From: Candidatus Parcubacteria bacterium
GTDB lineage: Bacteria; Patescibacteriota; Minisyncoccia; UBA6257; HR35
DNA length: 64,000 bases
Assembly: GCA_025999335.1 (NCBI GenBank)
Contig: AP024681.1
Location: forward strand, 523,547-587,546
Reading direction: 5' to 3'
Both the position numbers and the translations under genes were made by a program. Positions 9,313 to 52,859 of the stretch are shown in pieces. Each line of letters begins with the position of its first letter. Position 1 is the stretch's first letter. The notes beneath the pieces were generated by a model, which worked only from the letters and a program-made list of their open reading frames with translations, ran no database searches and was not told the DNA's origin.

Positions 9313-10545
9313 ATGTTGAGTATGGCGATCTCGTTTTTAATATTTTCAACTGCAATTAACGCTCAAAGCACTAAAGATTCTGATCAGGATGGCATTTTTG
9401 ATGATAAAGATAACTGCCCTAATGTTTATAATCCTAAACAGGAAGATAAAAATCAAAACGGCATTGGTGATGCTTGTGAAGCAGTTCAATGTCCTGATAG
9501 CTCAACGATTGAGGGATATGTTATGCAATGCAAACAATCAGGTTTAGGTTATGAAACTTATCAAGATCAATCAGGTTGTACTCAAGTAAAATGCGTAACG
9601 ACTCAAAATATTTGTCCAAGCGAAACAGAGATAAATAATGCTGTTCAAAAATGTCAACAATCAGGTTCTGATTTTACTTATTACTATGACAACAATAAAT
9701 GCAAGCAAGTTCAATGTATCCCTAAGCAAAATACCTGTCCATCAGAAGCTGATGTTAATAAAAAAATTGAAACTTGCAGATCTCAAGGTTTAGATTATAA
9801 ATTAGAGTATGATAGTAATAAATGCAAGCAAGTTCAATGTATCCCTAAGCAAAATACCTGTCCATCAGAAGCTGATGTTAATAAAAAAATTGAAACTTGC
9901 AGATCTCAAGGTTTAGATTATAAATTAGAGTATGATAGTAATAAATGCAAGCAAGTTCAATGTATCCCTAAGCAAAATACCTGTTCAAGCTCAGAGACAT
10001 TAAATAGTATTATGGAAGATTGCAAGAAAAAAGGATTGGATTATGAATTTTATGAAGAGAATGGTTGTAAACAAGTAAAATGCAAGATACCCGAAAGAAA
10101 AGAATCAACTGAATGTAAAAAAACTGTACAGGGACAATGCATTACAATAACCTGTGGCGATGGTTATACTTTTAATTCTTGTGATGTTCAAAATATGTGT
10201 AAGAATGTTGAATGCAAAAAATTTACCAATGAAAAAGGTTGTTCAGTGTTAAAATGTTCAAATGGTTATGAAGAGTCAGAATGTCCATCAGAGCCTATCA
10301 AGCCAGAAAAACCAGATAAACCTAAGATAGAGTGCAAAACATTTAAAGATGAAAAAGGATGCACAGTTAAGAAATGTTCTGATGGTTCAGAAACTAAGGA
10401 TTGTCGCAATGTTAGGCCAACAAGAAATAAATGTAAAATTTCTACTTATCAATTAATTACTGGAAGACAGTGCGTGGTTAAAGAATGTACCAATGGTTAT
10501 CGCTCAGATAGTTGTAAGCCAAGCAAAAATAAGACAACGCAATAA
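9313..10545 (+). CDS. Secreted Cys-rich modular repeat protein with an N-terminal thrombospondin-type-3-like Ca-binding motif
   Basis: Signal-like N-terminus. DSDQDGIFDDKDNCPNVYNPKQEDKNQNGIGDAC matches the TSP3 DxDxDG...DNCP...Q.D.D.DG.GDAC pattern. It is followed by about six 41-aa four-Cys modules (KCKQVQCIPKQNTCPSEADVNKKIETCRSQGLDYKLEYDSN). Confidence 0.55.
   Translation: MLSMAISFLIFSTAINAQSTKDSDQDGIFDDKDNCPNVYNPKQEDKNQNGIGDACEAVQCPDSSTIEGYVMQCKQSGLGYETYQDQSGCTQVKCVTTQNICPSETEINNAVQKCQQSGSDFTYYYDNNKCKQVQCIPKQNTCPSEADVNKKIETCRSQGLDYKLEYDSNKCKQVQCIPKQNTCPSEADVNKKIETCRSQGLDYKLEYDSNKCKQVQCIPKQNTCSSSETLNSIMEDCKKKGLDYEFYEENGCKQVKCKIPERKESTECKKTVQGQCITITCGDGYTFNSCDVQNMCKNVECKKFTNEKGCSVLKCSNGYEESECPSEPIKPEKPDKPKIECKTFKDEKGCTVKKCSDGSETKDCRNVRPTRNKCKISTYQLITGRQCVVKECTNGYRSDSCKPSKNKTTQ
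9694..9985 (+). repeat. Perfect tandem repeat, 123-nt period, about 2.4 copies, in-frame inside CDS 9313-10545
   Basis: Units beginning at 9694, 9817 and 9940 are identical until divergence near 9985. Each unit encodes one 41-aa Cys module. Confidence 0.85.
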
Positions 10546-13733: not shown

Positions 13734-14756
13734 ATGGGAAATTTTCAAGGAGGACAACCAACAATATCGACTCCAGATGATAATGAAAGATTTAAAAAAA
13801 TTGAAGAAGCGATTAATTTTCTTCGAGGAGTTAATATTGATTTTGAAGATGGAACAAAAATAACTTTTACTGATAAAGAATTGGAAGGAGTAAAAAAAAG
13901 TATTATTCAAAACCCAACATTTTTAAAAATATTTCTTGATATGATAAAACAACAATCAACTGAAGGCTTTGTCACAAAGTTTAAGCTTAATGTTCAAAAC
14001 CTACAAATTTCTCCTGAAGAGTGGAAAACTTGTGTTTTAGAACAACCATCACTTTTTGTTAGCTCACCAGAAACAATTAAATTCAATATCGAAGGAGTGG
14101 CTAGCTTTATAGCTGATATTTTACAAATATCTAAAGAAGAAGCTGAAAAACTTTATATTAGCAAAATTGCCTTGAAACATAGCTTTATAGCTGATATTTT
14201 ACAAATATCTAAAGAAGAAGCTGAAAAACTTTATATTAGCAAAATTGCCTTGAAACAACCATCACTTTTTACTCAATCTCCGGAAACAATAAAAACAAAA
14301 TTTGATCTTTATAATCTTTTTATAAATCAAGAAGAAAGTGGAATCACAGACTATTTGATTACCCAGCCTTCATATTTTACCCTTGCTTCCGAGAGAATAA
14401 TGGCTTTTTATGTTTTAGCAAAATTAATGAATAAAGAGTTAAGGTTTCGGATGTTAAAGGAAAATCCTCTTAATTTAGCTAGAGAAATGCTTTTTGGAGA
14501 AAATCGAGAAATTTTTGAGACATTATATGAATATTTCCGAAAACTTTTTGAACGAAGAAGAAGAATAAAAAGAAAAATAACTGACAGTGCTGAAATAGAA
14601 GCAAAAACAACCCTACGACATGCTGAAGTTCTTCTTAAATATTTTGGACCGAAGGAGCAAACGGGATTAACCCCAGAGCAGATTGAAAATATTAAAGAAT
14701 TAGTAACAAAAGTAAGAAATCATCTTAGAAAAGAGGAACTTAAAAAGAATAAATAA
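13734..14756 (+). CDS. Hypothetical helical-repeat protein (weakly mTERF-like) carrying a perfect in-frame 78-nt duplication
   Basis: Repeated QPSLF..SPETIK... motifs. DNA 14103-14180 is duplicated exactly at 14181-14258, encoding SFIADILQISKEEAEKLYISKIALK twice. Confidence 0.35.
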   Translation: MGNFQGGQPTISTPDDNERFKKIEEAINFLRGVNIDFEDGTKITFTDKELEGVKKSIIQNPTFLKIFLDMIKQQSTEGFVTKFKLNVQNLQISPEEWKTCVLEQPSLFVSSPETIKFNIEGVASFIADILQISKEEAEKLYISKIALKHSFIADILQISKEEAEKLYISKIALKQPSLFTQSPETIKTKFDLYNLFINQEESGITDYLITQPSYFTLASERIMAFYVLAKLMNKELRFRMLKENPLNLAREMLFGENREIFETLYEYFRKLFERRRRIKRKITDSAEIEAKTTLRHAEVLLKYFGPKEQTGLTPEQIENIKELVTKVRNHLRKEELKKNK

Positions 14757-31710: not shown

Positions 31711-31752
31711 AGAAAAGAAAGTTCTCTACAAAATAAAAACAACAATCATTAT

Positions 31753-31805
31753 TCCGGGGTAGTTCAGTGGTACCTGCCTACCGGCAGGCAGGGAACGCGC
31801 GGCTG
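31753..31805 (+). pseudogene. Degenerate 5' half of tRNA-Asn, ending inside the anticodon and carrying a 20-nt palindromic insert in the D-loop
   Basis: tccggggtagttcagtggta + [cctgcctaccggcaggcagg] + gaacgcgcggctg matches nt 1-34 of the intact tRNA-Asn at 32052 apart from the insert. Sequence then diverges (cataat...). Confidence 0.7.
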
Positions 31806-31821
31806 CATAATATAAAATAAA

Positions 31822-32061
31822 ATGAATTATTACGTGTATGTTTTGAGAAGTTTGAAAACAGGAAAACATTATATAGGTATAAGCAAAAATCCAGAGAAGA
31901 GACTAAAAGAGCACAACAAAGGGGATAGTAAATTTACGAAAGGTCATAGACCATGGGTTTTGGTTTATAAAGAGTTTGTTGGTAATAGATTAAAAGCTAG
32001 AGTAAAAGAAAAAGAATTGAAAAGATCATACACAAAACGAAAAAATTTTATTCCGGGGTAG
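31822..32061 (+). CDS. GIY-YIG nuclease-superfamily small protein, 79 aa
   Basis: MNYYVYVLRSLKTGKHYIGISKNPEKRLKEHNKG is the classic GIY-YIG motif (YVY...YIG...R..EH). The stop codon lies inside the first 10 nt of the intact tRNA-Asn. Confidence 0.7.
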   Translation: MNYYVYVLRSLKTGKHYIGISKNPEKRLKEHNKGDSKFTKGHRPWVLVYKEFVGNRLKARVKEKELKRSYTKRKNFIPG

Positions 32062-32123
32062 TTCAGTGGTAGAACGCGCGGCTGTTAACCGCGATGTCGT
32101 AGGTTCGAATCCTACCCCCGGAG
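32052..32123 (+). tRNA. tRNA-Asn(GUU), intact
   Basis: Hand-folded. Acceptor TCCGGGG/CCCCGGA. D-arm GTTC-AGTGGTA-GAAC. Anticodon stem CGCGG/CCGCG with loop CTGTTAA, giving anticodon GTT with A37. T-arm GTAGG-TTCGAAT-CCTAC. Discriminator G. Confidence 0.85.
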
Positions 32124-33710
32124 CAAAGAGGACTGATTTTCGCTTAAATTCTCAAAATCCCTATTAAAATCTTGCTTTTCTTGATTTTTAGCTGGTTCGA
32201 ATACACCCTCTTTCTCTAACTCACCAGGAAGATCCATTATTCGAACCGTAAATATAGGCTCAATCTTTACATTCAGCTTTTTATCCTTTACTATAAATTC
32301 AGAACCTATACACTTTAAAATAGTCCTTTTAGTGGCAATATCTCCGTTAAGATAAGCTTCTTTTATCTTTCCCACGATATTTACATAGTCAATAGCATAA
32401 TCAATCCATCTATCATCTTCATATTCTTGTTCTCTTAACATAGTTTCAATAGCTTGCTTTCTTTTTCTTAGCGGTTCAATATTCCTTTGAAATTCCTCCT
32501 CAGTAATCTCTCCGCTTGATTTCATATTTATTAAGTTATCAATCTGATTAGTTATAGCAGAATACATTCTTTTATAATGACCTAAATTCTTTTCTCTTTC
32601 TTCTTTTCTTTTTCTTTGTTCTTCTTTCAAAGTACTAATAGCCCAGTTATGAATAGCTTCAGGAATGCTAATATTTGATAAAACTTCTAAAATTTCATTT
32701 TCTAACTCCTCCTCTCTTATTGGTTTTTGATGGCAAATTCCAGGATAATTTTTCTTTTTAGCACATTCATAATAAACATATCTCAGAACCCTACCATTTT
32801 TGTTTCTTTTCAATTTTTCATAGCTAGTTAAAACACCACCGCATTCACCACATCTTAATAAGCCTCTAAACATATGAACGATTTTCCTCTTTTTAGGACT
32901 TCCTTTTCTATTTAAAATTTCTTGAACCAATAACCAAGTTTCTTTATCAATAACAGGCTCATAATTTCCTTTATACCAATTACCAGAACCTTTAGGATAT
33001 TCAAACTCACCATAATAATCAGGACATCTTAACATTGCATAAAATTTACTCGGAGATAATCTTTTGCCATATCTATTTGTTAATCCCCACTCATCAACAG
33101 CTATTCTATAAACTTCTTTAGGAGTGTATTGACCACTTGCTAATGTTTCAAATACTTTTCTTATAATATGAAATCTTTCTGGATCAGGAAAATAGTTATG
33201 TTCGCCTTTAGGAGAATATTTGTTATTGAGATAACCCAAAGGAGCTAATCCTGGTTTAAATCCTTTTTCAGCTTTCTTTCTCAGCCCTCTTTTAGTATTA
33301 GTAGCGAGATCTCTAATATACTGGTTAGCCATTCCAGTTTCTACAGCCCATAATAAAGCGTTATCTTCTGGCTTATAAACTCTTTCTGGTGTTCTAATTT
33401 CTTTAATTATTTCTTTTTGTAAAAGCCATTGAATTGTTCCTGAATCAATAGGGTTCCTGCTAAGTCTATCAACTTTCCAACATAAAATAGCATTAGCCTC
33501 TCCTTTTTTAATTTTTTCAATCATTAAGTTAAAAATCTCCCTTCCCGGCTCTTTAGCACTTTTAGCTTCTGTTAAAATATCAACAACTTCTAAACCCTCT
33601 TTTTCTGCTAATTTTTGTAATTCTTCAACCTGAGATTCTAAAGATAAGACCTGTCTATCTTCTGACTCTGAACTTTTTCTAGCATATATAATGTATCTAA
33701 GTTTTCCCAT
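32112..33710 (-). CDS. Large serine recombinase/integrase
   Basis: The N-terminal resolvase catalytic domain has IIYARKSSESEDRQ (catalytic Ser) and VDRLSRN. A recombinase domain and a Cys-rich zinc ribbon (CGECGG...C..C) follow. The 3' end, including the stop, overlaps the last 12 nt of tRNA-Asn. Confidence 0.8.
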   Translation of the reverse strand: MGKLRYIIYARKSSESEDRQVLSLESQVEELQKLAEKEGLEVVDILTEAKSAKEPGREIFNLMIEKIKKGEANAILCWKVDRLSRNPIDSGTIQWLLQKEIIKEIRTPERVYKPEDNALLWAVETGMANQYIRDLATNTKRGLRKKAEKGFKPGLAPLGYLNNKYSPKGEHNYFPDPERFHIIRKVFETLASGQYTPKEVYRIAVDEWGLTNRYGKRLSPSKFYAMLRCPDYYGEFEYPKGSGNWYKGNYEPVIDKETWLLVQEILNRKGSPKKRKIVHMFRGLLRCGECGGVLTSYEKLKRNKNGRVLRYVYYECAKKKNYPGICHQKPIREEELENEILEVLSNISIPEAIHNWAISTLKEEQRKRKEEREKNLGHYKRMYSAITNQIDNLINMKSSGEITEEEFQRNIEPLRKRKQAIETMLREQEYEDDRWIDYAIDYVNIVGKIKEAYLNGDIATKRTILKCIGSEFIVKDKKLNVKIEPIFTVRIMDLPGELEKEGVFEPAKNQEKQDFNRDFENLSENQSSLLRG

Positions 33711-33799
33711 TATTTATGTGAATTATAATAAATTTTTCTTAAAATCGCTAAACTTTATTAAATTAATTTCGCCCATTTTTTCTATGTTTTTTGTATATA

Positions 33800-33960
33800 C
33801 CCCCTCAACGATGTCCCGAAATTCCAGTTACTTAACCTGACCTAACCAGGGGGTTCTTATATAGGACAGGTTAGGTTGAAAAAGGGTATTTAACGATGTC
33901 GGAAAATTCCAACCTGACCTGCCTATATAAACACCCCCTTAGGTAGGTTAGGTTGACAAC
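33800..33960. repeat. Iteron and inverted-repeat cluster in the non-coding gap between integrase and primase genes. Candidate att or ori.
   Basis: aacgatgtcSgAaaattcca occurs twice (33806-33826 and 33891-33911). aacctgacct occurs twice (33834-33843 and 33911-33920). aggttaggttga occurs twice (33868-33879 and 33945-33956). Three ccccct / aggggg runs also occur. Confidence 0.6.
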
Positions 33961-33980
33961 TTTTTCACATAACTAATAGG

Positions 33981-35924
33981 TTAGAACTGAATGTCTAAAA
34001 TTGATAAACTCTCTTTACTCGATACTTCTGCATCTTCACTCTTTTCGTTTAAAAACCAACGATATGTAGCTCCCTTTTTATTTTCTTTTGGGTTTCTGCA
34101 AATTGAACCCTTATCATAAAGGCGGTCTAATGAAGCTTTTAGTTTTTTTCTTGTTATTTTGATTCCTTCATTCTCGAGTTCTTCTTTTATTGCGCTATAG
34201 ATTTCTGATGTTGTTAGCTCTTTTCCAGAATTTTCCTGTAAAAAATTAATTACAGCTTCTTCAATTAAAATGTTTTCTTCTTCAGAGATGTTAATTGATT
34301 TCAATTTCCCATTTTCGTCGAATTCATAAACAAGCTCTTTTGGTTCAATTATTCTTCCCTGCGATCTTAAAATTCTTCTTTTTTTATTATTTTCATGAAT
34401 GTTTAGGGTAATAAGAATGTCAAACATACCAGCGAGTGCGTGTGTTCCTGCAATTGACTTAATCCCTTGTTCGCTTTTGATCGTATGATGCAGTACAATT
34501 AGCGTTGTCCTTCTTTCTTGAAGAAATCTCAAAAAATTTAGCAATAAATTGCTTACTTCACTAGCAGAGGTTTCGTCTCTAATGTCATTACCAACGATAC
34601 TTCTTAGAGTATCTATAATCAAGATATCGGGGCTTAAATTTTTCACAATCTCATTAACTCCTTCAATCCCTAACGCTAATGCTGGTAGTATCAAAAGATT
34701 CTCCTTAATCTTTTCGAAATCCAAGCCTTCAAATAGACCAAACTCTTCATAATTTTTGATTCTTTTCTTCCATAAACTTTTAGATTCTTCTGAGAGATAT
34801 AGAATTTTATAATTTTCAGCCCATCCTAAACAATTTCTAAAAATAAGCTCTGTTTTTCCAGTTTTAGGATACGCAGAAAGAATATGCGTCCACCCCTTAA
34901 CAATAAACCCATTTTCTCCAATTAAGGGTATGAACTCTAGTTGATCTTCTGTTTCGCTTAAGAGATCATCGATAGTAAAGAAGCCCTTCTTTAATTTTTC
35001 GATATAGTCATAATTTAATGTTTTTAAATCACCGCCCTGTTGGTAAAATTCGGTGACATCTTTCCCGCAGGGGAGATTTATTATATAAACATCGCTCACT
35101 GAAAGGCTTAATTTGTTTATTAGATTATTCAACCAAGTTTTTCCAGTCTCATCACGGTCTGGAATAAGAAAAATTTTCTTAAACCTCCTAATTATATCAA
35201 CCCATTCATCAAGCCATTTAGTTGTTCCGCCTCCTGCGATTGTCAGGACGTTGAAACCTTCTTGATTCAGTAAAATAGCATCCAATTCTCCTTCTACCAG
35301 ATATATTTCTTCCTTTTCAAAGTCAACACAGTTAATTGGAAATAAAGTTTTCTTTGTTCCCGATCTTAACCACTTATACTTTTCCAGGTTTGGATTTTCC
35401 TTTAAGGGATCACGCCTGATTTTATAGTTTACAATTTTTCCGCTTTCGTCAAAAATTGGGATCCCAATCCAATAATTTCCTTTTTTATCTTTAAAACAAC
35501 TAAAACCAAATTTAGCAATAGTTTCATCAGTTAGTTTTCTTTTCTTTAACCAATCCTTTAGCTCTTCCGTTAAATCAATCAATTTATAAAACCCTTCACT
35601 AGCTGCCTCTTCTGTTTTTTCTTCAATATCATCAATTTCTCTTAAATAATGTTTTTTTAGATACCTAATGGCATCTTTGGTTGTTAAATTATGACAAATT
35701 TTAATGAAAGAAATAACATTTCCGCCTTTTCCGCAACCAAAGCAATACCAACTATTGGTTTTAGGATATATAGTAAATGAAGGATGGTTATCGTTATGAA
35801 AAGGACATTTTATTTGAGGTGTTCTTCTATTAGGAATTGCAATATCAGTTTCTCTTTGAATTACTTCTTTAATATCGAGATTATTTATTTTTTCAAATAT
35901 GTTATAATTATTTTGTAAAGACAT
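33981..35924 (-). CDS. Bifunctional phage/plasmid-type primase-helicase (zf-CHC2 + Toprim primase fused to a RepA/DnaB-like P-loop ATPase)
   Basis: CHC2 zinc finger (CPFHNDNHPSFTIY...WYCFGCGKGGNVISF). Toprim (LVEGELDAILL). Walker A (AYPKTGKTEL) and Walker B (ILIIDTL) motifs. Confidence 0.75.
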   Translation of the reverse strand: MSLQNNYNIFEKINNLDIKEVIQRETDIAIPNRRTPQIKCPFHNDNHPSFTIYPKTNSWYCFGCGKGGNVISFIKICHNLTTKDAIRYLKKHYLREIDDIEEKTEEAASEGFYKLIDLTEELKDWLKKRKLTDETIAKFGFSCFKDKKGNYWIGIPIFDESGKIVNYKIRRDPLKENPNLEKYKWLRSGTKKTLFPINCVDFEKEEIYLVEGELDAILLNQEGFNVLTIAGGGTTKWLDEWVDIIRRFKKIFLIPDRDETGKTWLNNLINKLSLSVSDVYIINLPCGKDVTEFYQQGGDLKTLNYDYIEKLKKGFFTIDDLLSETEDQLEFIPLIGENGFIVKGWTHILSAYPKTGKTELIFRNCLGWAENYKILYLSEESKSLWKKRIKNYEEFGLFEGLDFEKIKENLLILPALALGIEGVNEIVKNLSPDILIIDTLRSIVGNDIRDETSASEVSNLLLNFLRFLQERRTTLIVLHHTIKSEQGIKSIAGTHALAGMFDILITLNIHENNKKRRILRSQGRIIEPKELVYEFDENGKLKSINISEEENILIEEAVINFLQENSGKELTTSEIYSAIKEELENEGIKITRKKLKASLDRLYDKGSICRNPKENKKGATYRWFLNEKSEDAEVSSKESLSILDIQF

Positions 35925-35976
35925 TTTGTATCATAAAGCCTCGCTACTCTAAAAAGATAGCGGGGCTTTTTCTTTT

Positions 35977-36150
35977 TTAATTTTGACCTTTAAGATGTTT
36001 AAGTACTTCTTCAATATCAAATCTTCTAATACTTCTTTCGTAACTTCTGATTGATTTCAGAACACCCATCTTCTCCCACCTTCTTAAAGTCTGTGGATGC
36101 ACGTTTAGGATTTTTGCAAGCTCTCCAATCTTGATAAATTTTTTCTCCAT
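35977..36150 (-). CDS. MerR/excisionase-family HTH protein, 57 aa. Candidate Xis or regulator.
   Basis: The reverse complement translates to MEKKFIKIGELAKILNVHPQTLRRWEKMGVLKSIRSYERSIRRFDIEEVLKHLKGQN. The I.ELA..L.V...TLRRWE..G.L pattern is the Xis/MerR HTH_17 signature. Not in the track because it is under 60 aa. It overlaps track ORF 36026-36313 in another frame. Confidence 0.5.
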   Translation of the reverse strand: MEKKFIKIGELAKILNVHPQTLRRWEKMGVLKSIRSYERSIRRFDIEEVLKHLKGQN

Positions 36151-36515
36151 TTTTTGCTTTATTTTTTAATGATCGACCTTTAATTTTTTCAAAATTGAAA
36201 ATAACTTTATAAAGCTCCAAAATTTTTATTTTCTGTCTTAAAACTTCATCTTCTTTTAGCTTCAAGCCCGTTTCTTTGAATGCCTTTTCAAATTCTTTTA
36301 AATCTCTTTCCATTTCTCTTAAATTCTTACATTTGCTATAGGGGGAGTAAGGGAGATTTTTTTAAATATTTACTCTCACCATAGCTAAAAAATGTAGAAA
36401 AAATTAGGCAAAATAAAAAAGGAGTCTAATTAGCCTTCTTAAATTTCTAGCTCTTGACAAGGTTTAATCAAAGCAAACAAATCTTATTAGTACTGTTGTT
36501 TTTTTATTAATTTTT

Positions 36516-38159
36516 CTAAAAACTTTTAACTGCTTTTATAAAATCTCTGTAATCCTCTTTATTAACACTCCCCAATTTTAAAAGAGAACATAGCTCATTT
36601 AACGCTCGCCATGATTTTTGAGATTTTTCTAATATTTTCAGTATTATTTCCTTTAACTGAGGTAAATCATCGAGAGCATCAGCCAACATCCATAACAAAT
36701 GAATTTTTTCTCCCTCGAATGGAGTCATATTTTGATCTGCAAAAACATCTGAATAATTGCTTTCAAACTTTTCTACAAAAATAATAGCCTCTTTTATCGA
36801 CTGAAATTCTGATAAAATTTTTGATTTAAGATCTTTTAATTCTTGCCTGTTTTTATTTAAGTGCCTTTGTCTTGTTCTAATTTCCTGTTGATTTCTTGTA
36901 TGAATAGGTGGGTTAACTTTTACTATACCACTTTTTACATAGTTAATTAATTGAGATTGTTTTTTAAGTTCTTTTATTTCTTTCTTCCCATTTTTAATCA
37001 GGCTATTAAATCTCATAAACAGTCTTATAGTGTGCCTCAACTCATATTCTTTAGAATTTTTTATCTCTAAAATAGTTTTTAATCTTTTTCTGAATTCATT
37101 GTTTTCAGTTAATAGATAGCAAAGAACCCTTTTAGTATATGTTTTTTCGTCTTTAAATACTTTTTTGTTTTTTATCCGTTCCCTCATATATAGCCTCCAA
37201 TCATCAGGGTTGAACTCATCATAAAAAACATAATTTTTTAGCAAAGAACCATAAATATCAGGAATTTTGAATTTTTCAATAAAGTTTTTGGTAATTATTT
37301 TATAAGGGACAATCCTGTTTTCTTTATAAGAGACCTCTAATAAAGCTAAATAACCATAAACATCTTCCGTGTTAATTTGTTGTCCCTTAAGTATGTTGAA
37401 GTTTGTAAGATTATCAATATAAACGAAAGTTTCGCTTAATGGAATTTCTAAAATGTTTCTAATTTTCCCTGCATTCTTTAATTTCTGGTTGTTATTCAGT
37501 TCATTAATTTTCTTTTCTAATATTTCTAATGTCCAAAACCTATAATCTCTAAAAACTTTTTCTAAAGAAAAATTTTCGTCTAATTTCTTATATTTTTCTT
37601 CAATTTTCTTTCTTAAATTTAAAAAATCTTGAACATTAATTTTATATTTTTTTCGAAACTTTGCTACCTCTTTTTTGAAATTGTCTAAATTATTAAAATC
37701 CCAGTAAGATAAATATCCATCAAAATAAAGAAGTAATTTTTCCTGAATTATTTCGAATTTATCTAAAGTAGCAGCTTTTTTAAAAAGACTAACTACTTCA
37801 TTCTCATTATTTTTTAAGTAATTTCTAATCACCCCCACAGCATCTCCAATTTTTTCATCTACATATTCCGTCTCTTCTTTTTTTCTAAAAAATTTTTCTG
37901 TATGACTTAACTCCCCGCCAATTTCTTTTATTTCATAATCTAAATCGAAACCGCATTTTTCTAAGAAAAAATTGGATGTTAAATAATCGATAATGTAATC
38001 CACTTGATCTTCTCTTAACTTTATTTCCTTCAATTCTTTAGGGTAAATAGGAAAATAATAAATATCATCAGGTAGTTTTTCGAATAATCTATAACCATTT
38101 CCGCTTTTCAATTGCTCTTTAATACCATTTTTAATTTTCTCTACTAGATTTTTTATCAT
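36516..38159 (-). CDS. Hypothetical 547-aa protein of unknown function. Island cargo.
   Basis: Long uninterrupted ORF, Lys/Glu/Asn-rich. I could not recognise any Walker, nuclease, HTH or transmembrane motif. Confidence 0.4.
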   Translation of the reverse strand: MIKNLVEKIKNGIKEQLKSGNGYRLFEKLPDDIYYFPIYPKELKEIKLREDQVDYIIDYLTSNFFLEKCGFDLDYEIKEIGGELSHTEKFFRKKEETEYVDEKIGDAVGVIRNYLKNNENEVVSLFKKAATLDKFEIIQEKLLLYFDGYLSYWDFNNLDNFKKEVAKFRKKYKINVQDFLNLRKKIEEKYKKLDENFSLEKVFRDYRFWTLEILEKKINELNNNQKLKNAGKIRNILEIPLSETFVYIDNLTNFNILKGQQINTEDVYGYLALLEVSYKENRIVPYKIITKNFIEKFKIPDIYGSLLKNYVFYDEFNPDDWRLYMRERIKNKKVFKDEKTYTKRVLCYLLTENNEFRKRLKTILEIKNSKEYELRHTIRLFMRFNSLIKNGKKEIKELKKQSQLINYVKSGIVKVNPPIHTRNQQEIRTRQRHLNKNRQELKDLKSKILSEFQSIKEAIIFVEKFESNYSDVFADQNMTPFEGEKIHLLWMLADALDDLPQLKEIILKILEKSQKSWRALNELCSLLKLGSVNKEDYRDFIKAVKSF

Positions 38160-38940
38160 TTTTGCTAAAATTTTATATTTCCTTATTAAAAAGTCAACTC
38201 TTAATTAAATTTTACCTAAAAGTTATAAAGCTTAAACCTTTTTAAAAGCTTACGGGCTTAAATGTATTTTGTGAAAATTTAAAAATTCCGCAGATTTTAC
38301 AAAAATTAAAAATCTTTATTATATTCACCACGAAGTCTATTCCTTGCTTTAAAAATAACTCCCTGTACCCCTCCCCTGGCTATGTTTAAACAAGCGCTCT
38401 TTACCACTATAGTTTCACTTTTTACTTTTTAAGTCATTCCATTATCTAACAAGAAGGAGATAATTTTTAAAGCAGAAATTTTTACTATAAAACACCATAA
38501 CACCATAACACTAAATTCTACAATCTGAATATTTAAATTAAATTTCAAAAATCCTCTCAAAAAACTAAGATTCCAAGCATAATTAAACCCTAAATTCCTT
38601 AAACAAAATTCACAATTTTTGATAAAATTTAATTAATAAAGGCTGAGAACAATGGTTGATAAAAATAATAAAAAGAATGATAAAAAATTTGTAGAGTTGA
38701 TCTGGCATGGAAAATATAAAGAATTTAATTTGAAAGATAAAATTTCTATCGAGAGACCAAATCTGCCGTTCCAGTTTATAGAAACAATTAATGAACCTAT
38801 ATAAATATGGAACAGCTTAAATATTTTCTAAATTAATTAAATTATACATAGCAACAGTTAGGTTATGAACAAGTTACTAGAAATTCGCATAAATTGCCCT
38901 AAGGAATATTTAAAAATAAATTAAAAAATAATGTTAAAAA

Positions 38941-41685
38941 ATGAGAAACTCGACAAACAATTGGAAGACGGTAGTATTAAAAAAGTTTGAGGAACTAGAT
39001 TATAAGAAAGAGATTCTTACAATTTTTGATGAAAGAACCAAAAAGATAGATTTTTCAAGTTGTATTAAGCAACATCAAAAACAGAACTTCGAAGACGAAG
39101 CTTACATAAGAGCCTATCTTGTTTTGAGACTCATAAAAGAGCTTAATTATCCATGTGAAGTGATAGAGTTAGAAAAAAAATATTCCATAGGTCATCCTTC
39201 TAAAAAAGAAGCCCGTTTAGATATTCTTGTTAAGACTAAAAGAGGAAATCCATTCATGTTATTAGAGTGCAAAACCCCAGATAACTTTATCAAAGAAAAA
39301 GATGATGCTCTAGAAAATCAACTTTTTGCAATTGCTAAGCACGAAATAAGAGGCGAAATAAAACCAAAATACTTAGTCTTATATACAATAGATATTGAAA
39401 ATGGAAAAGTTTTAGATAGAGCAATTATAATAGATTTCGAACAATACTCAACTTATGAAGATTGGAAAGAAGCAGGAGAATCTTCCTTGGATGAGATACC
39501 AGCAGATTATGGTATAGCAAAAAAATATACGTATGCCAACATAGAAAGACCAAATCCAAATGGTGGTTTAAAACCCCTAAGAAAAGATTATACTCTTGCA
39601 GATTTTGAAAAGCTAAGAGTAGATCTACATAACAAATTATGGGCTGGAGGTGAGGCTGATTACAACGATATCTTCTATCATCTAATAAAGATAATGCTCG
39701 TTAAAATATATGATGAGTTATTTACGCCCGAAGGAGGAATTTATGACTTTCAAATATTTTATAAGAATGGTGAACCAGAAACCCCAGAGGAACTAGCAGA
39801 AAGATTAGAAAAGAAATACAAAATCGCTTTAAAAGAACTTTTAAACTATGATGATGAAAAAATAAAGGAAATACCTTTGATTGAGAGAGATAAATTTACT
39901 TATGAAAAGTTATTCTATGCCGTAGAGAAACTCCAAGAAATTTCTTTAACAGAAAATATTCATAGCAAAGGAGAAGATGTTTTGGGCTTATTCTTTGAAA
40001 GCATATTACAAAACGAATTTAAACAAAGTAAAGGACAGTATTTCACTCATAAGAATATTGTAAGATTTTTAATTTATGCATTAGAATTAGATAAATTAGC
40101 GATAGACAAGTTGAATCAAACATATCCACACTTTCCATACATTATAGACCCTGCTGCTGGTAGTGGCACATTTCTTGTTGAAGCAATGAAAATTATTACA
40201 AAAGAAGTGTTGAGAAATAAAGATAAATTAAAACTTACTAGATCTTTAAAAGAAAAAATAAAGGACTTAGAAGACCCTAATAGGAAACATCGTTGGGCAG
40301 AAGATTATATTTATGGAATTGAGCCGAACGCCCGTTTAGGTTTAGCAACCAAACTAAACATGATTCTGCATGGCGATGGAAACATGAATATTTTTATTGA
40401 AGATGGTCTAATGCCTTTCAAAATAAAAGATGAAGCGTTTTACACGAGAAAGTGGAAAGGGAAGGATGTTGGTTTGTTGGCTGAGGGTGAAAATACGAGT
40501 ATTTACCCAAAACCAATAAATGGACGTTTTGATGTGGTACTATCAAACCCGCCTTTCTCTATGAAAATTGAGGCGATGAAAGCTTATAGGTACATAAAAG
40601 ATACCTTTGTTTTTTACGATAAGAAAAATTCAGAAAACTTATTTATAGAAAGATGGTTCCAGTTATTAGCCCCCAAAGGAAGATTAGGTGTTGTCTTGCC
40701 AGAAAGTGTTTTTGATACTAAAGAAAACCTATATATCAGGAATTTTCTTTATAAGTATTTCAAAATAAAGGCTATCATCAGCCTGCCTAAGGAAGCTTTT
40801 GAACCTTACACATCAACGAAGGTTAGTTTGTTAATTGCAGAAAAGAAAACCGATGAAGAAATTAAAGCATGGGAGGATAAATGGAGAGAGTATGCAAACA
40901 AATACAATAAATTAAGAAATTCAGAAATAATCCGGTTTTTCATAGAGAACGATAAAATTCTTAACTCTTTCAGAACACTTTTGGACAAACATAATATTGA
41001 AATAGATTATTCAAAAGTTTTGGTTCATGACTTGTTGGATGATAATTTGAAAGGTGAAATTGAAGCAAAAATATTACAAAATGATAAAAATAAATTTAAG
41101 GATTTGGTAAAGAAAATAAAATACTTTAAAGATAAATATAAACTGGACGAGTTAGATACTGAAGAAAATAAGAAAATTCTGAAGGAATTTCTGAAACAAT
41201 TTTATCCACAAGAGCAAGAGCTTAAGAGTTTTAAAGAACTCTTAGAATATGTTTATGATGATGTTCTGGAAATAGCCACTTTGGACTATCCACAAATTGA
41301 AGGGCAAAACAATTACTGTAATAGCTGGTGGGTTTTTGGAGAGGTATCTAAGCACTTTAATTATTCGATATTCTACGCTGAAGTTGAAAACATTGGGTAT
41401 AAGAGAACAAAGAGGGGCGAACAAGACAAAGACATTCCAATAAAAGATGAAAATGGAAATATCATCGCTTTTAAAAACGATTTCTTTAAAGTTAAAGCCG
41501 AGAAAGTGAAGAGAACATATTGGGTTAAGAAAGGGGATAAAGTAGTTCAGGAAGAAAAAGAGGAAATTATCAAAACCGACATAATAATAGATACAGAAAA
41601 TCCTGAAACTGTGCTTGACCATATAAGAAGTGCAAACATTTGGTCAGAAAATTCCAATTTTAATTTTGAGGTGAAAGAAAAATGA
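38941..41685 (+). CDS. Fused restriction endonuclease / N6-adenine DNA methyltransferase (Type IIG/IIB, BcgI-A-like)
   Basis: The N-terminal HSDR_N-like PD-(D/E)xK domain has RLDILVKTKRGNPFMLLECK. The central gamma-class MTase has motif X (GQYFTHKNIV), motif I (IDPAAGSGTFLVEA) and motif IV (VLSNPPFS). The C-terminal ~350 aa is helical and of unknown role. Confidence 0.7.
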   Translation: MRNSTNNWKTVVLKKFEELDYKKEILTIFDERTKKIDFSSCIKQHQKQNFEDEAYIRAYLVLRLIKELNYPCEVIELEKKYSIGHPSKKEARLDILVKTKRGNPFMLLECKTPDNFIKEKDDALENQLFAIAKHEIRGEIKPKYLVLYTIDIENGKVLDRAIIIDFEQYSTYEDWKEAGESSLDEIPADYGIAKKYTYANIERPNPNGGLKPLRKDYTLADFEKLRVDLHNKLWAGGEADYNDIFYHLIKIMLVKIYDELFTPEGGIYDFQIFYKNGEPETPEELAERLEKKYKIALKELLNYDDEKIKEIPLIERDKFTYEKLFYAVEKLQEISLTENIHSKGEDVLGLFFESILQNEFKQSKGQYFTHKNIVRFLIYALELDKLAIDKLNQTYPHFPYIIDPAAGSGTFLVEAMKIITKEVLRNKDKLKLTRSLKEKIKDLEDPNRKHRWAEDYIYGIEPNARLGLATKLNMILHGDGNMNIFIEDGLMPFKIKDEAFYTRKWKGKDVGLLAEGENTSIYPKPINGRFDVVLSNPPFSMKIEAMKAYRYIKDTFVFYDKKNSENLFIERWFQLLAPKGRLGVVLPESVFDTKENLYIRNFLYKYFKIKAIISLPKEAFEPYTSTKVSLLIAEKKTDEEIKAWEDKWREYANKYNKLRNSEIIRFFIENDKILNSFRTLLDKHNIEIDYSKVLVHDLLDDNLKGEIEAKILQNDKNKFKDLVKKIKYFKDKYKLDELDTEENKKILKEFLKQFYPQEQELKSFKELLEYVYDDVLEIATLDYPQIEGQNNYCNSWWVFGEVSKHFNYSIFYAEVENIGYKRTKRGEQDKDIPIKDENGNIIAFKNDFFKVKAEKVKRTYWVKKGDKVVQEEKEEIIKTDIIIDTENPETVLDHIRSANIWSENSNFNFEVKEK

Positions 41686-43076
41686 AAGTACAAAATATTA
41701 CTTTACAAAATATTTCTCGGAATTACTATCTGCGTTTAGATTATAAAATTAATGCGTATCATTCTCATATTAGAAAAGATTATAAAAATGGTTGGAAAGT
41801 AAAGGACTTCCTTAAAATTATCAAGGCAAATCAAACAAAACCAGAAAACTTTGATGAAGGATATTTAATAGAATTAGAACATATTTTAAGCGGAGATGTG
41901 GAATTGAATAATGTTAAAAAAGTTAATGAGATTGGTTCAGATAAAGTTATTCTTAATCAAGCTAATTTTGCTTATTGTAAACTGGAAACAGGTAAAGGCT
42001 ATTTTATAGCTCTTCCTGAGGACATTCCTGATTATGATGGTGTATCATTAATTGTTGGGTCTACAGAGCTAGTACCATGTAGAGTAAGCATTAATAACAA
42101 AATTGCGAAATATTATCTTACACACTTTAAAGAAATTTTTAATATGTTCCTTTCTGGAAAAACGCATAGAAGGATACATGAAATAGAATTCTTAAATATA
42201 GAACTTCCAAAAATAAAAATTAGCAATACTCTATTGGATAAGATAATTTCAATTGAGAAAGAAATCTCTAAACTTAAAACTCAAATCAAGGAACCTAAAA
42301 TTATTGTAGATGAAGTTTTCAGCAAATACTTTAAACTTGATCTGAAACAATATTCAAATTTAGAAAAGAAACATATATTTGGAGAAGATTTGTTTAACTT
42401 ATCTAAATCTGCACAACTCAGGAGTTCTCTAAAGTTTCATCATCCAAAATTTGATTTTGTTTTGAAAAAAATAAAAGAGTTCAAAACTGTAAAACTGAAA
42501 CAATTACTGAAAGAACCTGTAAGAAGAGGCGTTCAACCAGAATATGAAGAAGAAGGGGGAATCCTCGTAATAAAAACTATTAATGTAAATAAAGAAGGAT
42601 ACATTGATTTAACCGAAACCGAATTTGTTAGTGATGAGTTTTATAACAAAGTAAAAAAGAAGGCAGGAATTCAACAAGGAGACATTCTTATAACATCTAC
42701 AGGCGAAGGACGGGGGAAGGTAAGCTTATATGACTTAGATGAACCCGCAATTATAGATACTCACATATCAATAGTCAGGTGCAAAGAAGATGTGAATAAA
42801 AAATATTTAACCTACTTTTTGCTATCAAGTATGGGAGAGAACCAATTAAGTATTTTAGAGCAAGCCATTAAAGGAACCCCAGAAATTTATCCACGAGAAA
42901 TAGAAAAACTTATTGTAATCTATCCTCCCTCTGAAATTCAGAACAAAATAGTTGAAGAAATAGAGACAAAACTTAACGAACAAAGAAAAATTACCAGGCA
43001 AATAGAGAAACTAAAACAAGAAATAGATAAACTGATAGAAAAAGCAATTTTGGATAACAAACTAAAAAATGATTAA
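41682..43076 (+). CDS. Restriction-modification specificity (HsdS-like) subunit with two target-recognition domains
   Basis: The ATGA start/stop overlap with the upstream R-M gene suggests translational coupling. It is 464 aa with two variable halves separated and followed by conserved coiled-coil spacers (…ISKLKTQIKEP… and …ITRQIEKLKQEIDKLIEKAI…), as in Methylase_S. Confidence 0.6.
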   Translation: MKVQNITLQNISRNYYLRLDYKINAYHSHIRKDYKNGWKVKDFLKIIKANQTKPENFDEGYLIELEHILSGDVELNNVKKVNEIGSDKVILNQANFAYCKLETGKGYFIALPEDIPDYDGVSLIVGSTELVPCRVSINNKIAKYYLTHFKEIFNMFLSGKTHRRIHEIEFLNIELPKIKISNTLLDKIISIEKEISKLKTQIKEPKIIVDEVFSKYFKLDLKQYSNLEKKHIFGEDLFNLSKSAQLRSSLKFHHPKFDFVLKKIKEFKTVKLKQLLKEPVRRGVQPEYEEEGGILVIKTINVNKEGYIDLTETEFVSDEFYNKVKKKAGIQQGDILITSTGEGRGKVSLYDLDEPAIIDTHISIVRCKEDVNKKYLTYFLLSSMGENQLSILEQAIKGTPEIYPREIEKLIVIYPPSEIQNKIVEEIETKLNEQRKITRQIEKLKQEIDKLIEKAILDNKLKND

Positions 43077-43350
43077 GACTCTTGGGCGCGTGCGGGACTT
43101 TTTATTTAATTTTGTGAAGTTTATTTTTACAGTTCGCTAATAAACGAATATCTGATTCAAGCTTTTAGTCTTAGGTAAAATTATTCTAGAAATTTTAAAC
43201 ATTAATAATATTATTAAGTTGAAAGTAAAGAAGATGTCGAGAAGTCTAAAAGAAGGTTTTAATATCGCAAAACAACCCCAGCTGTATTCCTTATCTTCAA
43301 TTTCACTTTCCATTCTGTTTGTTTTATAATATTTTCAAGAGTTCGAATAA

Positions 43351-45144
43351 AATTTTCCCTGCGGAGGAGAAAGATTAGAAAAAGGAAAAACATACATCAT
43401 TAGATGGGAGTCCAATGGTGTTTCACATGTTTATCTTAAATTAAGAAAAGGTAATGATGCATACCCAGGACAGGAAGGAATGATATCCGGTATTATTTTT
43501 AATACAGGATTTTATCAGTGGACAGTTCCCAAAACATTACCATATGGAAATGATTACAAGATTAGGGTGATTGATGCTGATTTAATATCTTCAACAAATG
43601 TAGACACAGGACCTGTTATTGATGATAGCGATGCTTCATTTAGTATTGTCTCTTCAACAACTACTCCTTCAATCAGAGTTATTTCACCTAATGGAGGAGA
43701 AAATTGGACTATCGATTCTTATCAAAAAATAAAATGGAGCGCACTCAATGATAAAACAGTTAGTATTTATTTAAAAAGGTATATTTCTTGTCTTTATGCT
43801 CAGCCTAAGTGTCGATTAACAGAACCAATGCCTATAATTATTGCTGAGAATATTCCAAATATAGGTGAATATGATTGGCAAGTTGGGAATATTGTTAAAA
43901 AATTTGAATATCAAACTTTATCTTCAGGTAGTTATATTATTGAGATTAGAGGAAATAATTCAGGAGAAGTAGATGTTAGTGATAAACCGTTGCAAATTGT
44001 TTATACAAATAGTCCTTTAAATCCTTCAAAACAAGCTTGTATTCAGGCTACAACTTTTGCTTATGATCCTAAAAATCCATCAAAATGTCAAGAATTTTCA
44101 ACACCTTGCGATGTTCCCGAGGGTTGGCTAACAACAGATAAATGCCAACAAAAAAATACTTTCTTAGAACCTATGGAGGTGCCAGTATTGGTTATAAAAT
44201 ATTATCCTACTCAAAATGGACGAACTATTGATACTTCCATTACTTTGGATATTCCTCAAGGAAGAACTATCAAAGAACAAGATGAAATCACCAATAGTTT
44301 GAATAAAAAATTGATAAAAGCCCTAACTGAAGGAAGTAAATATCATGGTTATAAAAATTCTAATGCTTTACCTTTTTTAACTTATAAAGTGATTGCAGAA
44401 AAGACATTTTTGAAAAGATTACCTTTAACTGATAACAAAATAATAGATTACTTTAGTATTATGAAAGATCTTAATGTTTGTGATTATGTTGATAATAAAG
44501 GGGTTAAAGAAATTTGGATTTGGGCTTATGCTAGCAATTACGAAATAATGTGGGAATCTAATTTTTCATCTATTTATGGTGATATAAGTAATAGCAATCG
44601 AGACCCTAATGATTTGCCTGTTTGTAAAAAATCGTATACTGTTTACACTTATAATTATGGCAGAGAATATGCTACGGCTTTGGAGAATCATGGTCATCAA
44701 ATAGAGCATATCTTAAATTGGATTGATGGTCGAGATATAACACCAAATGATCAATGGGATAAGCTTTTATTCTGGGGTAAATTTGTTGGGCGAAATTTTG
44801 AAAATAAAATACTGCCTCCTGTTTCTGCTTGTGGTTGGATTCATTCTCCGCCAAATACAGAAAAAGATTATCATTGGTATGAGAAAACCCAAGTATTTTC
44901 AGACTGTGAGGATTGGAATCCAAATAGAACAGGCAAGAAAAAACCTGTAAACTGCGTTACCTGGACTGGTAATTCTGAATGTAAAGATGATGGCGGAGGA
45001 GAAATGTTTAAAATTTGGTGGATGCAAAATATTCCTGGCTATAAAAATGAGCTTTACTATAATAATATCAAACTAAGAAATTGGTGGGAATTTATTGGCG
45101 ATTTTGATGAAGCTTTGAAAATAGGGAAAAGTTTGACTTACTGA
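43351..45144 (+). CDS. Secreted Cys-rich beta-sandwich protein. Apparently 5'-truncated; the first ATG is at 43480.
   Basis: The reading frame is open from 43351 with no start codon. The upstream in-frame sequence …KTYIIRWESNGVSHVYLKLRKGNDAYPGQEGMISGIIFNTGFYQWTVPKTLPYGNDYKIRV is one coherent Ig-like 'Y.W.VP...G.DYKIRV' module, so coding sequence precedes the first Met. No signal peptide is present. A second Ig-like module follows, then a Cys-rich C-terminal region. Confidence 0.4.
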   Translation, partial: NFPCGGERLEKGKTYIIRWESNGVSHVYLKLRKGNDAYPGQEGMISGIIFNTGFYQWTVPKTLPYGNDYKIRVIDADLISSTNVDTGPVIDDSDASFSIVSSTTTPSIRVISPNGGENWTIDSYQKIKWSALNDKTVSIYLKRYISCLYAQPKCRLTEPMPIIIAENIPNIGEYDWQVGNIVKKFEYQTLSSGSYIIEIRGNNSGEVDVSDKPLQIVYTNSPLNPSKQACIQATTFAYDPKNPSKCQEFSTPCDVPEGWLTTDKCQQKNTFLEPMEVPVLVIKYYPTQNGRTIDTSITLDIPQGRTIKEQDEITNSLNKKLIKALTEGSKYHGYKNSNALPFLTYKVIAEKTFLKRLPLTDNKIIDYFSIMKDLNVCDYVDNKGVKEIWIWAYASNYEIMWESNFSSIYGDISNSNRDPNDLPVCKKSYTVYTYNYGREYATALENHGHQIEHILNWIDGRDITPNDQWDKLLFWGKFVGRNFENKILPPVSACGWIHSPPNTEKDYHWYEKTQVFSDCEDWNPNRTGKKKPVNCVTWTGNSECKDDGGGEMFKIWWMQNIPGYKNELYYNNIKLRNWWEFIGDFDEALKIGKSLTY

Positions 45145-45572
45145 ATAAATAATTTTTTTATTTTCAGTTAGATATTTTTTAATTAAATTTTGTTTCTAAA
45201 TTAGTTTTTAATTCATTAAGTAATCTTTTAGTTTCATCAAAAAATTTTCGTTGTTATTATAATTTTCAGTATAGAAAACAATTTTTAATTGATTTTGAGC
45301 AATTAGTTTTATAGTAAAAATTTCTTGAAGTTGAGAAGATATATTCAAATCTTTAGCTATCTTATTGTAAATATTTTCGATTTCATAAACAGATAATTTT
45401 TCAACTTCACCGCTAATATTAAAAAATGTTTTTTCTTTGAATTTCAGAAAAATTAAGTTTAATTTTTTTGTTTGTTTAATTTCGATTTCTTGAGATATTT
45501 GGCGTTTTTGTTTGTTTTTTTAAATAATTTTTCAAAAAATTTCATTTTTCATTTTTTATTTTAATAAGACTT

Positions 45573-52521: not shown

Positions 52522-52818
52522 TCCGGGGTAGTTCAGTGGTAGAACGCGCGGCTGTACTTAGTGCAGCTTCCATCCGTAAGGATGGATGAAAAACAGGGTG
52601 AAAACGGTGAAGCCCTCTAAAGGGTAATACCGTGCCAGCCTAAGCTGAAAAGCTTTGGAAGGTGTAGAGACTATTCCTTAATGGAAGTAGGCTTAGTAAT
52701 TTTACTAAGTCGAAGCACCCCGCCCCAGTAAAACTGGGTGAAGATATAGTCCACTCCTTAAGGAAACTTAAGGGAAAGTGTAACCGCGATGTCGCAGGTT
52801 CGAATCCTGCCCCCGGAG
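52522..52818 (+). tRNA. tRNA-Asn(GUU) interrupted by a group I intron in the anticodon loop. Exons are 52522-52555 and 52781-52818.
   Basis: The 5' exon is identical to nt 1-35 of the tRNA-Asn at 32052. The 3' exon taaccgcgatgtcgcaggttcgaatcctgcccccggag completes the anticodon loop CTGT|TAA. It differs from the other copy only by a compensatory T-stem pair (GCAGG/CCTGC versus GTAGG/CCTAC). Confidence 0.8.
52556..52780 (+). ncRNA. Group I self-splicing intron, 225 nt, no ORF
   Basis: The 5' exon ends in U and the intron ends in G (omega-G). The internal guide sequence GCAGC at intron nt 8-12 pairs with exon GCUGU (P1, with a U·G wobble). R-like element AGAGACUA and S element AAGAUAUAGUCC form P7 (GACUA/UAGUC). 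P/Q-like GGGUGAAA and GCCCUCUAAAGGG segments are present. Confidence 0.7.
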
Positions 52819-52859
52819 CACAGAAGAATAATTTTCATCCTCTTTTTCAAAAATTTTAA

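Follow-up and report, generated by a model that had tools for sequence, protein, structure and literature searches.

The 64,000-nucleotide stretch of the Candidatus Parcubacteria bacterium genome analyzed here (GenBank assembly GCA_025999335.1, contig AP024681.1; the window, with positions counted from its first letter) carries an orphan protein of 547 amino acids (aa), designated X, which lies beside a set of restriction-modification (R-M) genes. The question raised by this locus is whether X belongs to a defence cargo or to the machinery of the mobile element that carries it. The original prediction placed X at the centre of a defence island, as the largest cargo gene and a candidate for immunity or abortive infection. 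The ATG-initiated open reading frame (ORF) of X is present on the minus strand, and it is divergent from the R-M genes at 38941-41685 (914 aa) and 41682-43076 (the specificity, or S, subunit). The rest of that description did not hold, because X is the last gene common to a group of related elements and sits at the boundary between backbone and cargo of an element spanning about 32119-43366, and because the 914-aa R-M gene and a 647-aa primase-helicase are both larger. Thus, X can be regarded with good confidence, on the evidence of conserved gene order, as a backbone gene. On a joint reading of the evidence, its role is probably a non-enzymatic one in the life cycle of the element and not defence; the immunity proposal had rested on the cargo assignment, and a defence function is less likely than a backbone role.

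The genes and sites that form the conserved part of the element in the window are as follows.

36516 to 38159, minus strand: X, the 547-aa orphan protein, an ATG-initiated ORF assigned to the backbone of the element
36026 to 36313, minus strand: Y, a small ORF of 95 aa in the window with the motif ILxLYxxIFxFEK, found after X in every locus
35977 to 36150, minus strand: a 57-aa excisionase-like helix-turn-helix (HTH) protein of the MerR/HTH_17 type, overlapping the end of Y in the +1 frame
33981 to 35924, minus strand: the primase-helicase, 647 aa, with DnaG zinc finger, Toprim and AAA_25 domains
32112 to 33710, minus strand: the large serine recombinase (LSR), 532 aa as the ORF of the integrated state, sharing 13 nt at its 3' end with the tRNA-Asn gene
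32052 to 32124, plus strand: tRNA-Asn(GTT), the integration target, with the core CGGAG at 32119-32123 in the acceptor end

The relatives of X were sought at several depths. A word-indexed search of 5.8 billion clusters returned X itself as the sole match (KatS3mg097_544, a hypothetical protein encoded on a 680-kb contig of a Candidatus Parcubacteria metagenome-assembled genome), and the same search with a profile of five X sequences recovered the query alone. An exhaustive HMMER scan of 1.84 billion representatives yielded four relatives, namely P0002, which aligned to X over its full length with 31% identity (E=3e-42), and P0003, P0004 and P0005, with E values between 1e-5 and 1e-8. The loci of these relatives were gathered from genome and metagenome scans plus exact look-ups. 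Intact X ORFs of 547-582 aa were present in at least five distinct sequences, and the family comprises three clades. The contigs with X relatives have a G+C content of 22-30% (the window is likewise AT-rich, at about 28% G+C), and the two taxonomically labelled loci belong to Parcubacteria/Paceibacterota. No match to X was obtained by tblastn against phage and plasmid collections, and viral contigs scanned with X, the recombinase and the primase-helicase gave either nothing or distant phage primases only. Moreover, no paper on this element family or on the genome was found among the top-ranked keyword matches, and none for the locus-tag prefix.

The gene order around these relatives carries the assignment of X to the backbone. 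X, Y, a replication gene and the LSR occur in that order beside a tRNA gene in the window, in the L002-type loci (L002, L012, L013 and L014) and in L007, L003 and L009. In the L002-type loci and L007 the full order is X, Y, HTH, primase-helicase, LSR and tRNA, the target being tRNA-His in L002 and an intron-bearing tRNA-Asn in L007. X and Y are followed in L009 by a 136-aa ORF, a helicase and the LSR, with the replication module reduced to the AAA_25 helicase and the HTH homologue located at the distal element end. The contig of L008 covers X and Y and breaks off early in the HTH ORF. L003 (135-3783) is a decaying copy of the element at a tRNA-Asn gene of a related host, with X and the helicase frameshifted and the recombinase ORF intact. 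The position and orientation of X were the same in every element. Furthermore, tblastx between the element of the window and the other elements showed that they share the segment from the LSR to X (32051-38048) and a short tail at the far end (43271-43354), and that the R-M region shares nothing. The backbone therefore consists of five genes (LSR, replication gene, excisionase-like HTH, Y and X) with one variable slot between X and the distal end, in elements of 10.5-11.2 kb. As a separate observation, the excisionase-like HTH ORF always comes after Y, in the +1 frame and overlapping it by 47-125 nt (window 35977-36313; L002 11188-11545; L005-L008), L009 being the exception.

What lies beyond X differs from lineage to lineage. 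In the window, the slot holds two genes.

38941 to 41685, plus strand: a fused nuclease-methyltransferase of 914 aa with HSDR_N_2, N6_Mtase and Eco57I domains, for which the best PADLOC model is Type IIG
41682 to 43076, plus strand: a Type I-like specificity (S) subunit of 464 aa, cargo

Together, the 914-aa protein and the S subunit form a two-gene architecture resembling BcgI (Type IIB). In L009, the slot carries a Type III system, with Mod (PDLC03633, 1.3e-104) and Res (1.4e-20), beginning 112 bp from X, and in L008 it carries two methyltransferases and an endonuclease (4e-74), all three of Type II, along with a Cys-rich membrane protein. The slot of the L002-type elements contains a 638-aa membrane protein, with an HExxH motif spotted by eye, together with Zn-ribbon proteins, and the proteins of this slot gave no PADLOC matches. 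Since X is homologous and fixed in place while the genes beyond it are unrelated, X borders an exchangeable cargo slot. Measured by the pattern typical of defence hotspots, which is variable presence between conserved flanks, X does not qualify, being itself part of the conserved flank. A survey of neighbourhoods across homologues, as the original prediction had proposed, did find R-M genes beside X in the window, L009 and L008, three of the four lineages whose context is visible, but the position of X at the slot accounts for this adjacency. A gene for a DUF5681 protein of 113-115 aa was also observed in L002 (509-856), L013 (1095-1442) and L008 (2817-3158), with 78% identity between clades; in L002 and L013 it is found immediately inward of the distal end, and in L008, where the distal end was not found, in a comparable position, and it is absent from the window and L009.

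The limits of the element were located through the recombinase. The LSR contains the Resolvase, Recombinase and Zn_ribbon_recom domains and overlaps tRNA-Asn or tRNA-His, and its attP site lies inside the 3' end of its own ORF, the repeat being limited to a 5-bp core. The far end and the junction rebuilt from the two ends are as follows.

43262 to 43369, minus strand: the distal element end, with a 36-codon tail LLRRENFIRTLENIIKQTEWKVKLKIRNTAGVVLRY that would continue the LSR ORF when the element is excised, and the core CGGAG at 43362-43366
Window attP junction: AATCAGTCCTCTTTGCTCCG joined directly to CAGGGAAAATTTTATTCG

The element thus measures about 11.24 kb (32119-43366). Joining both ends restored an in-frame ORF that reads NQSSLLR up to the junction and RENFIRT after it. 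The tail LLRRENFIRTLENIIKQTEWKVKLKIRNTAGVVLRY recurs in L002 and L009, and between the window and L002 it differs by seven synonymous and three non-synonymous codons, with an identical stop position. On integration, a conserved tail of about 33 residues (RENFIRTLENIIKQTEWKVKLKIRNT...) is swapped for 1-11 codons that run antisense through the tRNA, so that the C-terminus of the recombinase differs between the excised and the integrated state. In L009 (Logan SRR27730026, 10,513 bp), the tail stands directly after ...ESENYSSVLRK, the C-terminal sequence of the recombinase (L009 1-133), and the opposite end of the contig (9146-10513) encodes recombinase residues 1-456. The contig starts with the end of the LSR and ends with its start, which indicates a circular permutation that leaves attP uninterrupted inside the recombinase ORF; about 200 nt are missing and the two termini do not overlap exactly. 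The contig is compatible with an excised circle or, alternatively, a tandem array, carrying only Type III R-M cargo. With both ends placed and a candidate excised form at hand, the element appears well defined, and it very likely also replicates.

Two other placements of the distal boundary were considered and rejected. Extension to a second tRNA-Asn at 52.5 kb was ruled out, because the genes from 45573 onward are housekeeping genes (tgt, queuosine salvage, M20 peptidase and others) and because that tRNA is merely interrupted by a group I intron. No displaced 3' half of the tRNA exists that could have marked the boundary, which was located via the recombinase tail. Several features in these surroundings are recorded here. 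Just beyond the distal end lies a 554-aa ORF with a Kre9/KNH-like Ig domain (43480-45144). The second tRNA-Asn (52522-52820) is split after position 34 by its 225-nt intron (Rfam RF00028, 54.3 bits, 52546-52773) and was missed by ARAGORN; a related, longer intron occurs in the tRNA-Asn adjacent to L007. Directly upstream of the intact tRNA-Asn are a partial copy of the 5' half of a tRNA-Asn, split by a G+C hairpin (31749-31772 and 31793-31805), and, after it, a 79-aa GIY-YIG nuclease ORF (31822-32061). Elsewhere in the window, perfect tandem repeats of 100% identity were found at 9694-9984 (123-bp unit, 2.4 copies) and 14102-14257 (78-bp unit, 2.0 copies).

X is a member of an uncharacterised, fast-evolving protein family. 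As had been predicted, X shows no recognisable motif, and neither the profile searches nor a comparison of its model with fold libraries gave a confident match to any housekeeping or structural family. X was without match in Pfam, PADLOC, PHROGs and NCBIfam, a profile search of PDB sequences with the X family gave zero matches at E values up to 10, and for seven family members Pfam and PHROG yielded nothing beyond scattered noise in single members. Similarity to Rep, DnaD/DnaB-loader and ParA/ParB families was likewise absent (Pfam at E values up to 5 with seven members, NCBIfam and the PDB profile search). In PADLOC-DB 2.0 there was no match for X, for the L002 homologue or for P0003, and P0002 matched only Cmr5 (E=0.027). 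Signatures of a nuclease, NTPase, TIR, SIR2 or transmembrane effector were not found in X, and the family has no P-loop. Its invariant columns are mainly aromatic or aliphatic. The motifs that its members have in common include FWDFN and FRK at about residues 153-170, EN at 280-281 and, at 299-321, IPxxxxxLxKxxxFY with W321 after it, and an aromatic C-terminal pattern is also conserved. An alignment of five sequences contained no invariant His, Cys or Asp, and an alignment of seven added one invariant Asp. The protein is of low-complexity-like composition, rich in K, E, I, L and N, and basic, with an isoelectric point (pI) of 9.2 for the whole protein and 10.1 for residues 346-470; a zinc-ribbon-like insert (CxxC...CxxxxC) occurs in one family member, P0003. 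The AlphaFold (AF2) model built with the five-sequence alignment reached a pLDDT of 60 and a pTM of 0.43, the single-sequence model being useless (pLDDT 39), and suggests a mostly alpha-helical protein in which residues 354-468 form very long helices, plus two small hairpins. Foldseek of this model against PDB and BFVD returned only generic long-helix proteins (best E values of 0.07 and 0.014, TM below 0.15).

The gene for X is flanked by two candidate signals.

38170 to 38197, minus strand: a promoter-like site for X (TTGACT, 16 nt, TAAAAT), a consensus match only, ending 10 nt before the ATG
36400 to 36461, minus strand: the motif CTTGTCAAG at 36453-36461, just past the X stop codon, followed by a T-run, from an alignment of six loci plus L008 and L009

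The 75 bp upstream of X that hold the promoter-like site (38156-38230) are 72% identical to the equivalent region of L009. TTGTCAA, which is part of the near-palindrome CTTGTCAAG, stands directly after the X stop codon in all eight loci (window, L002, L003 and L005-L009). In the relatives, this motif is followed by a G+C hairpin and a T-run resembling a terminator, with a weak stem in the window. The possibility that CTTGTCAAG is a repeated operator was ruled out, since it is not enriched within the window. The upstream region of X is also well preserved inside the L002 clade, with 82% mean conservation (L002 9021-9414; L007 9184-9577; L005 966-1384; L006 1-420); just before the X promoter it contains two hairpins, which show compensatory changes (in one stem of about 16 bp, for example, two pairs have gone from GC to CG) and have no counterpart in the window.

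The sequence of X has been maintained by selection while diverging quickly. Within the L002 clade, omega for X was 0.18-0.24 over 546 codons, a value of purifying selection that marks X as a constrained coding gene. Between the window and the L002 type, identity was 69-71% for the LSR (compared with L002, L007 and L003), 40% for the primase-helicase (compared with L002 and L007) and about 30% for X, so that X diverges faster than both. Between L002 and L007, synonymous divergence was 0.66 for X, 0.12 for the primase-helicase, 1.36 for the recombinase and 0.15 for the neighbouring 638-aa protein. Because these values differ by module, the elements are mosaic, and X and the primase-helicase recombine independently.

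Between X and the R-M genes lies a region that, as the original prediction had it, spans about 780 bp and contains short repeats and a 50-aa ORF.

38160 to 38940, no strand: the 781-bp ORF-free stretch, made up of the X promoter, about 420 bp that are unexplained, a mod relic and the upstream region of the R-M genes
38652 to 38804, plus strand: the 50-aa ORF, left over from the 5' end of a mod gene (Type III methyltransferase), found by PADLOC, BLASTP and tblastn
38491 to 38511, no strand: tandem 8-mer AACACCAT, 2.6 copies, with a score of 42 in Tandem Repeats Finder (TRF)

The stretch contains no ORF of at least 90 aa and is the longest such gap in the window, the runner-up measuring 559 bp; the equivalent intergenic space beside X in L009 is only 112 bp. 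Both the repeats and the small ORF are present as described, but the 8-mer is background, given that 56 TRF rows of the window score at least 40, and the small ORF is a remnant of another gene. It matched the PADLOC profile MTase_III PDLC03633 (E=1.2e-4, profile positions 20-55) and, by BLASTP, the intact Mod of L009 at residues 9-36 (E=5e-7, 42% identity), and tblastn also placed a match at 38691-38798. Beyond Mod residues 9-36 nothing was detectable, neither a catalytic methyltransferase domain nor a remnant of Res. The relic is placed like the intact mod of L009, divergent from X, which indicates that the slot of the window formerly held a Type III system that has since been replaced. Slot turnover accounts for part of the 781 bp, and about 420 bp (38231-38650) remain unexplained, with no Rfam match, repeats, excess folding energy or similarity to other loci. 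A structured RNA in the 781-bp region was ruled out by the lack of an Rfam match and a folding z of about 0.4 on both strands, and iterons or an origin by the lack of significant repeats and of any motif common to the equivalent regions of the relatives. A perfect 20-nt inverted repeat AGAAATTTTTACTATAAAAC was also observed between 38474-38493, in the gap, and 45306-45325, before tgt and outside the element; its length was reached in 1 of 300 shuffles.

These data bear on what X may do. The element integrates at the very 3' terminus of a tRNA gene (that of Asn or, in one lineage, of His) by means of its LSR. In the reading that we consider probable, X would act as a non-enzymatic binding protein in the life cycle of the element, most likely in control of the excision-replication operon starting just downstream, or in support of it, as a regulator or adaptor. 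LSRs need an element-encoded directionality factor for excision, and such factors share no common fold and may be moonlighting proteins (PMC12286644; PMC11795197). A directionality factor contacts the second DNA-binding domain or the coiled-coil of its recombinase and makes attL x attR recombination possible (PMC12286644). This requirement makes a directionality role for X possible, as the factor itself or alongside it; if the element excises, then X, Y or the small HTH protein must supply the function. Several points weigh against this reading. The molecular role of X is deduced from context, and the family is represented by only four independent lineages, all metagenomic. The HTH protein is the conventional candidate for excision, and the primase-helicase shows weak DNA-binding-type matches near its C-terminus (residues 557-624; the Sta1 and ORF80 families at E values of about 0.05), so that X is not obviously required. 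Furthermore, the terminator-like element separates X from the downstream operon, so that any co-regulation with it would be putative, and the fast divergence of X together with R-M adjacency in three lineages would also fit a function related to conflict. In a bolder reading, which we hold unlikely, X would define a new family that couples the mobility switch of the element to its restriction cargo, either as a novel type of large directionality factor or master regulator of a serine-recombinase episome in ultra-small bacteria, or as an immunity or exclusion factor borne by the element and acting alongside whichever R-M system fills the slot.

That X is a new defence, abortive-infection or exclusion protein, protecting the host or the element from phages or competing elements, seems rather unlikely. 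X neighbours R-M genes and is transcribed divergently from them in the window, L009 and L008, it forms a self-contained unit with its own promoter-like site and, in the relatives, a terminator-like element, it evolves faster than the other backbone genes, and it matches no housekeeping or structural family, all of which agree with a defence protein. However, X is equally placed in the L002-type elements, where the slot is free of known defence genes, and it stays homologous while the neighbouring defence genes swap, which is the pattern of a flanking core gene and not of hotspot content. The simplest account of its co-occurrence with R-M genes is that X flanks the cargo slot. In addition, no PADLOC model matches the family members tested, X bears none of the effector signatures listed above, and selection on it is purifying (omega about 0.2), not diversifying. 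We think it quite unlikely that X works with the primase-helicase as an episomal replication or maintenance factor, such as an origin-binding initiator, helicase partner, partition protein or multimer-handling protein. X always accompanies a replication gene (the primase-helicase, or the AAA_25 helicase in L009), its central region is basic with predicted long helices, P0003 carries the zinc-ribbon-like insert, and between lineages both X and the primase-helicase have diverged far more than the recombinase. Against this stand the lack of similarity to Rep, DnaD/DnaB-loader, ParA/ParB or primase families and the constancy of X in type while the architecture of the replication module differs. 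The non-coding region on the X side is also unconserved (112 bp in L009, and no motif in common with the L002 type), which makes it unlikely to be a cognate origin, and the unequal synonymous divergence of X and the primase-helicase (0.66 vs 0.12, L002 vs L007) points to independent recombination. Finally, X might be a decaying or functionless ORF, its family reflecting only the compositional similarity of lysine-rich proteins in AT-rich genomes; the low-complexity-like composition and the frameshifted L003 copy would agree with this. Such decay is highly improbable in view of the full-length alignment to P0002, the invariant aromatic motifs (FWxFN, the xFRK block and IPxxxxxLxKxxxFY), the constraint over 546 codons and the ORFs of 547-582 aa kept intact in at least five distinct sequences. 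The non-enzymatic backbone role thus remains the favoured reading of X.

The element resembles known tRNA-targeting integrative replicative elements and is distinct in its host phylum, its LSR with an internal attP, its small size and X. Like tycheposons and other elements of this kind (10.1101/2020.12.28.424599) and phage-inducible chromosomal island (PICI)-like satellites, it integrates site-specifically at a tRNA gene, carries an integrase, an excisionase-like HTH and a primase/helicase module, has a cargo region able to hold defence genes and leaves degenerate copies at the same tRNA, here L003. Conserved genes of unknown function are likewise among the hallmarks of those elements, and X is such a gene here. 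A tyrosine recombinase is present in 910 of 937 tycheposons (10.1101/2020.12.28.424599), whereas the present element uses an LSR. It further differs from tycheposons in residing in Parcubacteria, in having attP within the recombinase ORF with a repeat of 5 bp instead of a partial tRNA, and in lacking capsid or packaging genes, and X has no counterpart in the described hallmark sets of tycheposons, as far as these can be compared. Defence-carrying platforms such as pipolins (PMC11551731) and mobile R-M forms (PMC2853133) likewise appear to combine a conserved mobility and replication backbone with a slot for interchangeable, unrelated R-M systems, and the mod relic of the window provides direct evidence of R-M replacement in the slot. 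Unlike such platforms, the present element has no primer-independent PolB, is far smaller (about 11 kb) and usually carries a single R-M system. Characterised directionality factors of LSRs comprise about 50-260 residues, and X differs from them with its 547. In the SSV1-type split integrase of archaeal fuselloviruses and in the integration-dependent immunity of mycobacteriophages such as BPs and Brujita, an attP within a coding sequence alters the encoded C-terminus; both systems use tyrosine recombinases, and the split gene in the mycobacteriophages is the repressor. The likeness here is that integration alters a C-terminus, which belongs to the recombinase and not to X, with about 30 codons exchanged.

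Little has been described of the mobile elements in the Candidate Phyla Radiation, whose bacteria depend heavily on R-M systems. The locus represents a precisely delimited and very small element, made up of five backbone genes and a single cargo slot in about 11 kb, which appears to shuttle different types of R-M systems between Parcubacteria and whose excised form is likely present in public reads. Its recombinase, with a C-terminus that depends on integration, may interest those who engineer serine integrases. For annotation, the locus advises caution in that an orphan gene beside an R-M system is not automatically a defence candidate, and synteny across relatives tells backbone from cargo. 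Moreover, because X is one of just five backbone genes, its function must lie near the core of the regulation, excision, copying or maintenance of the element.

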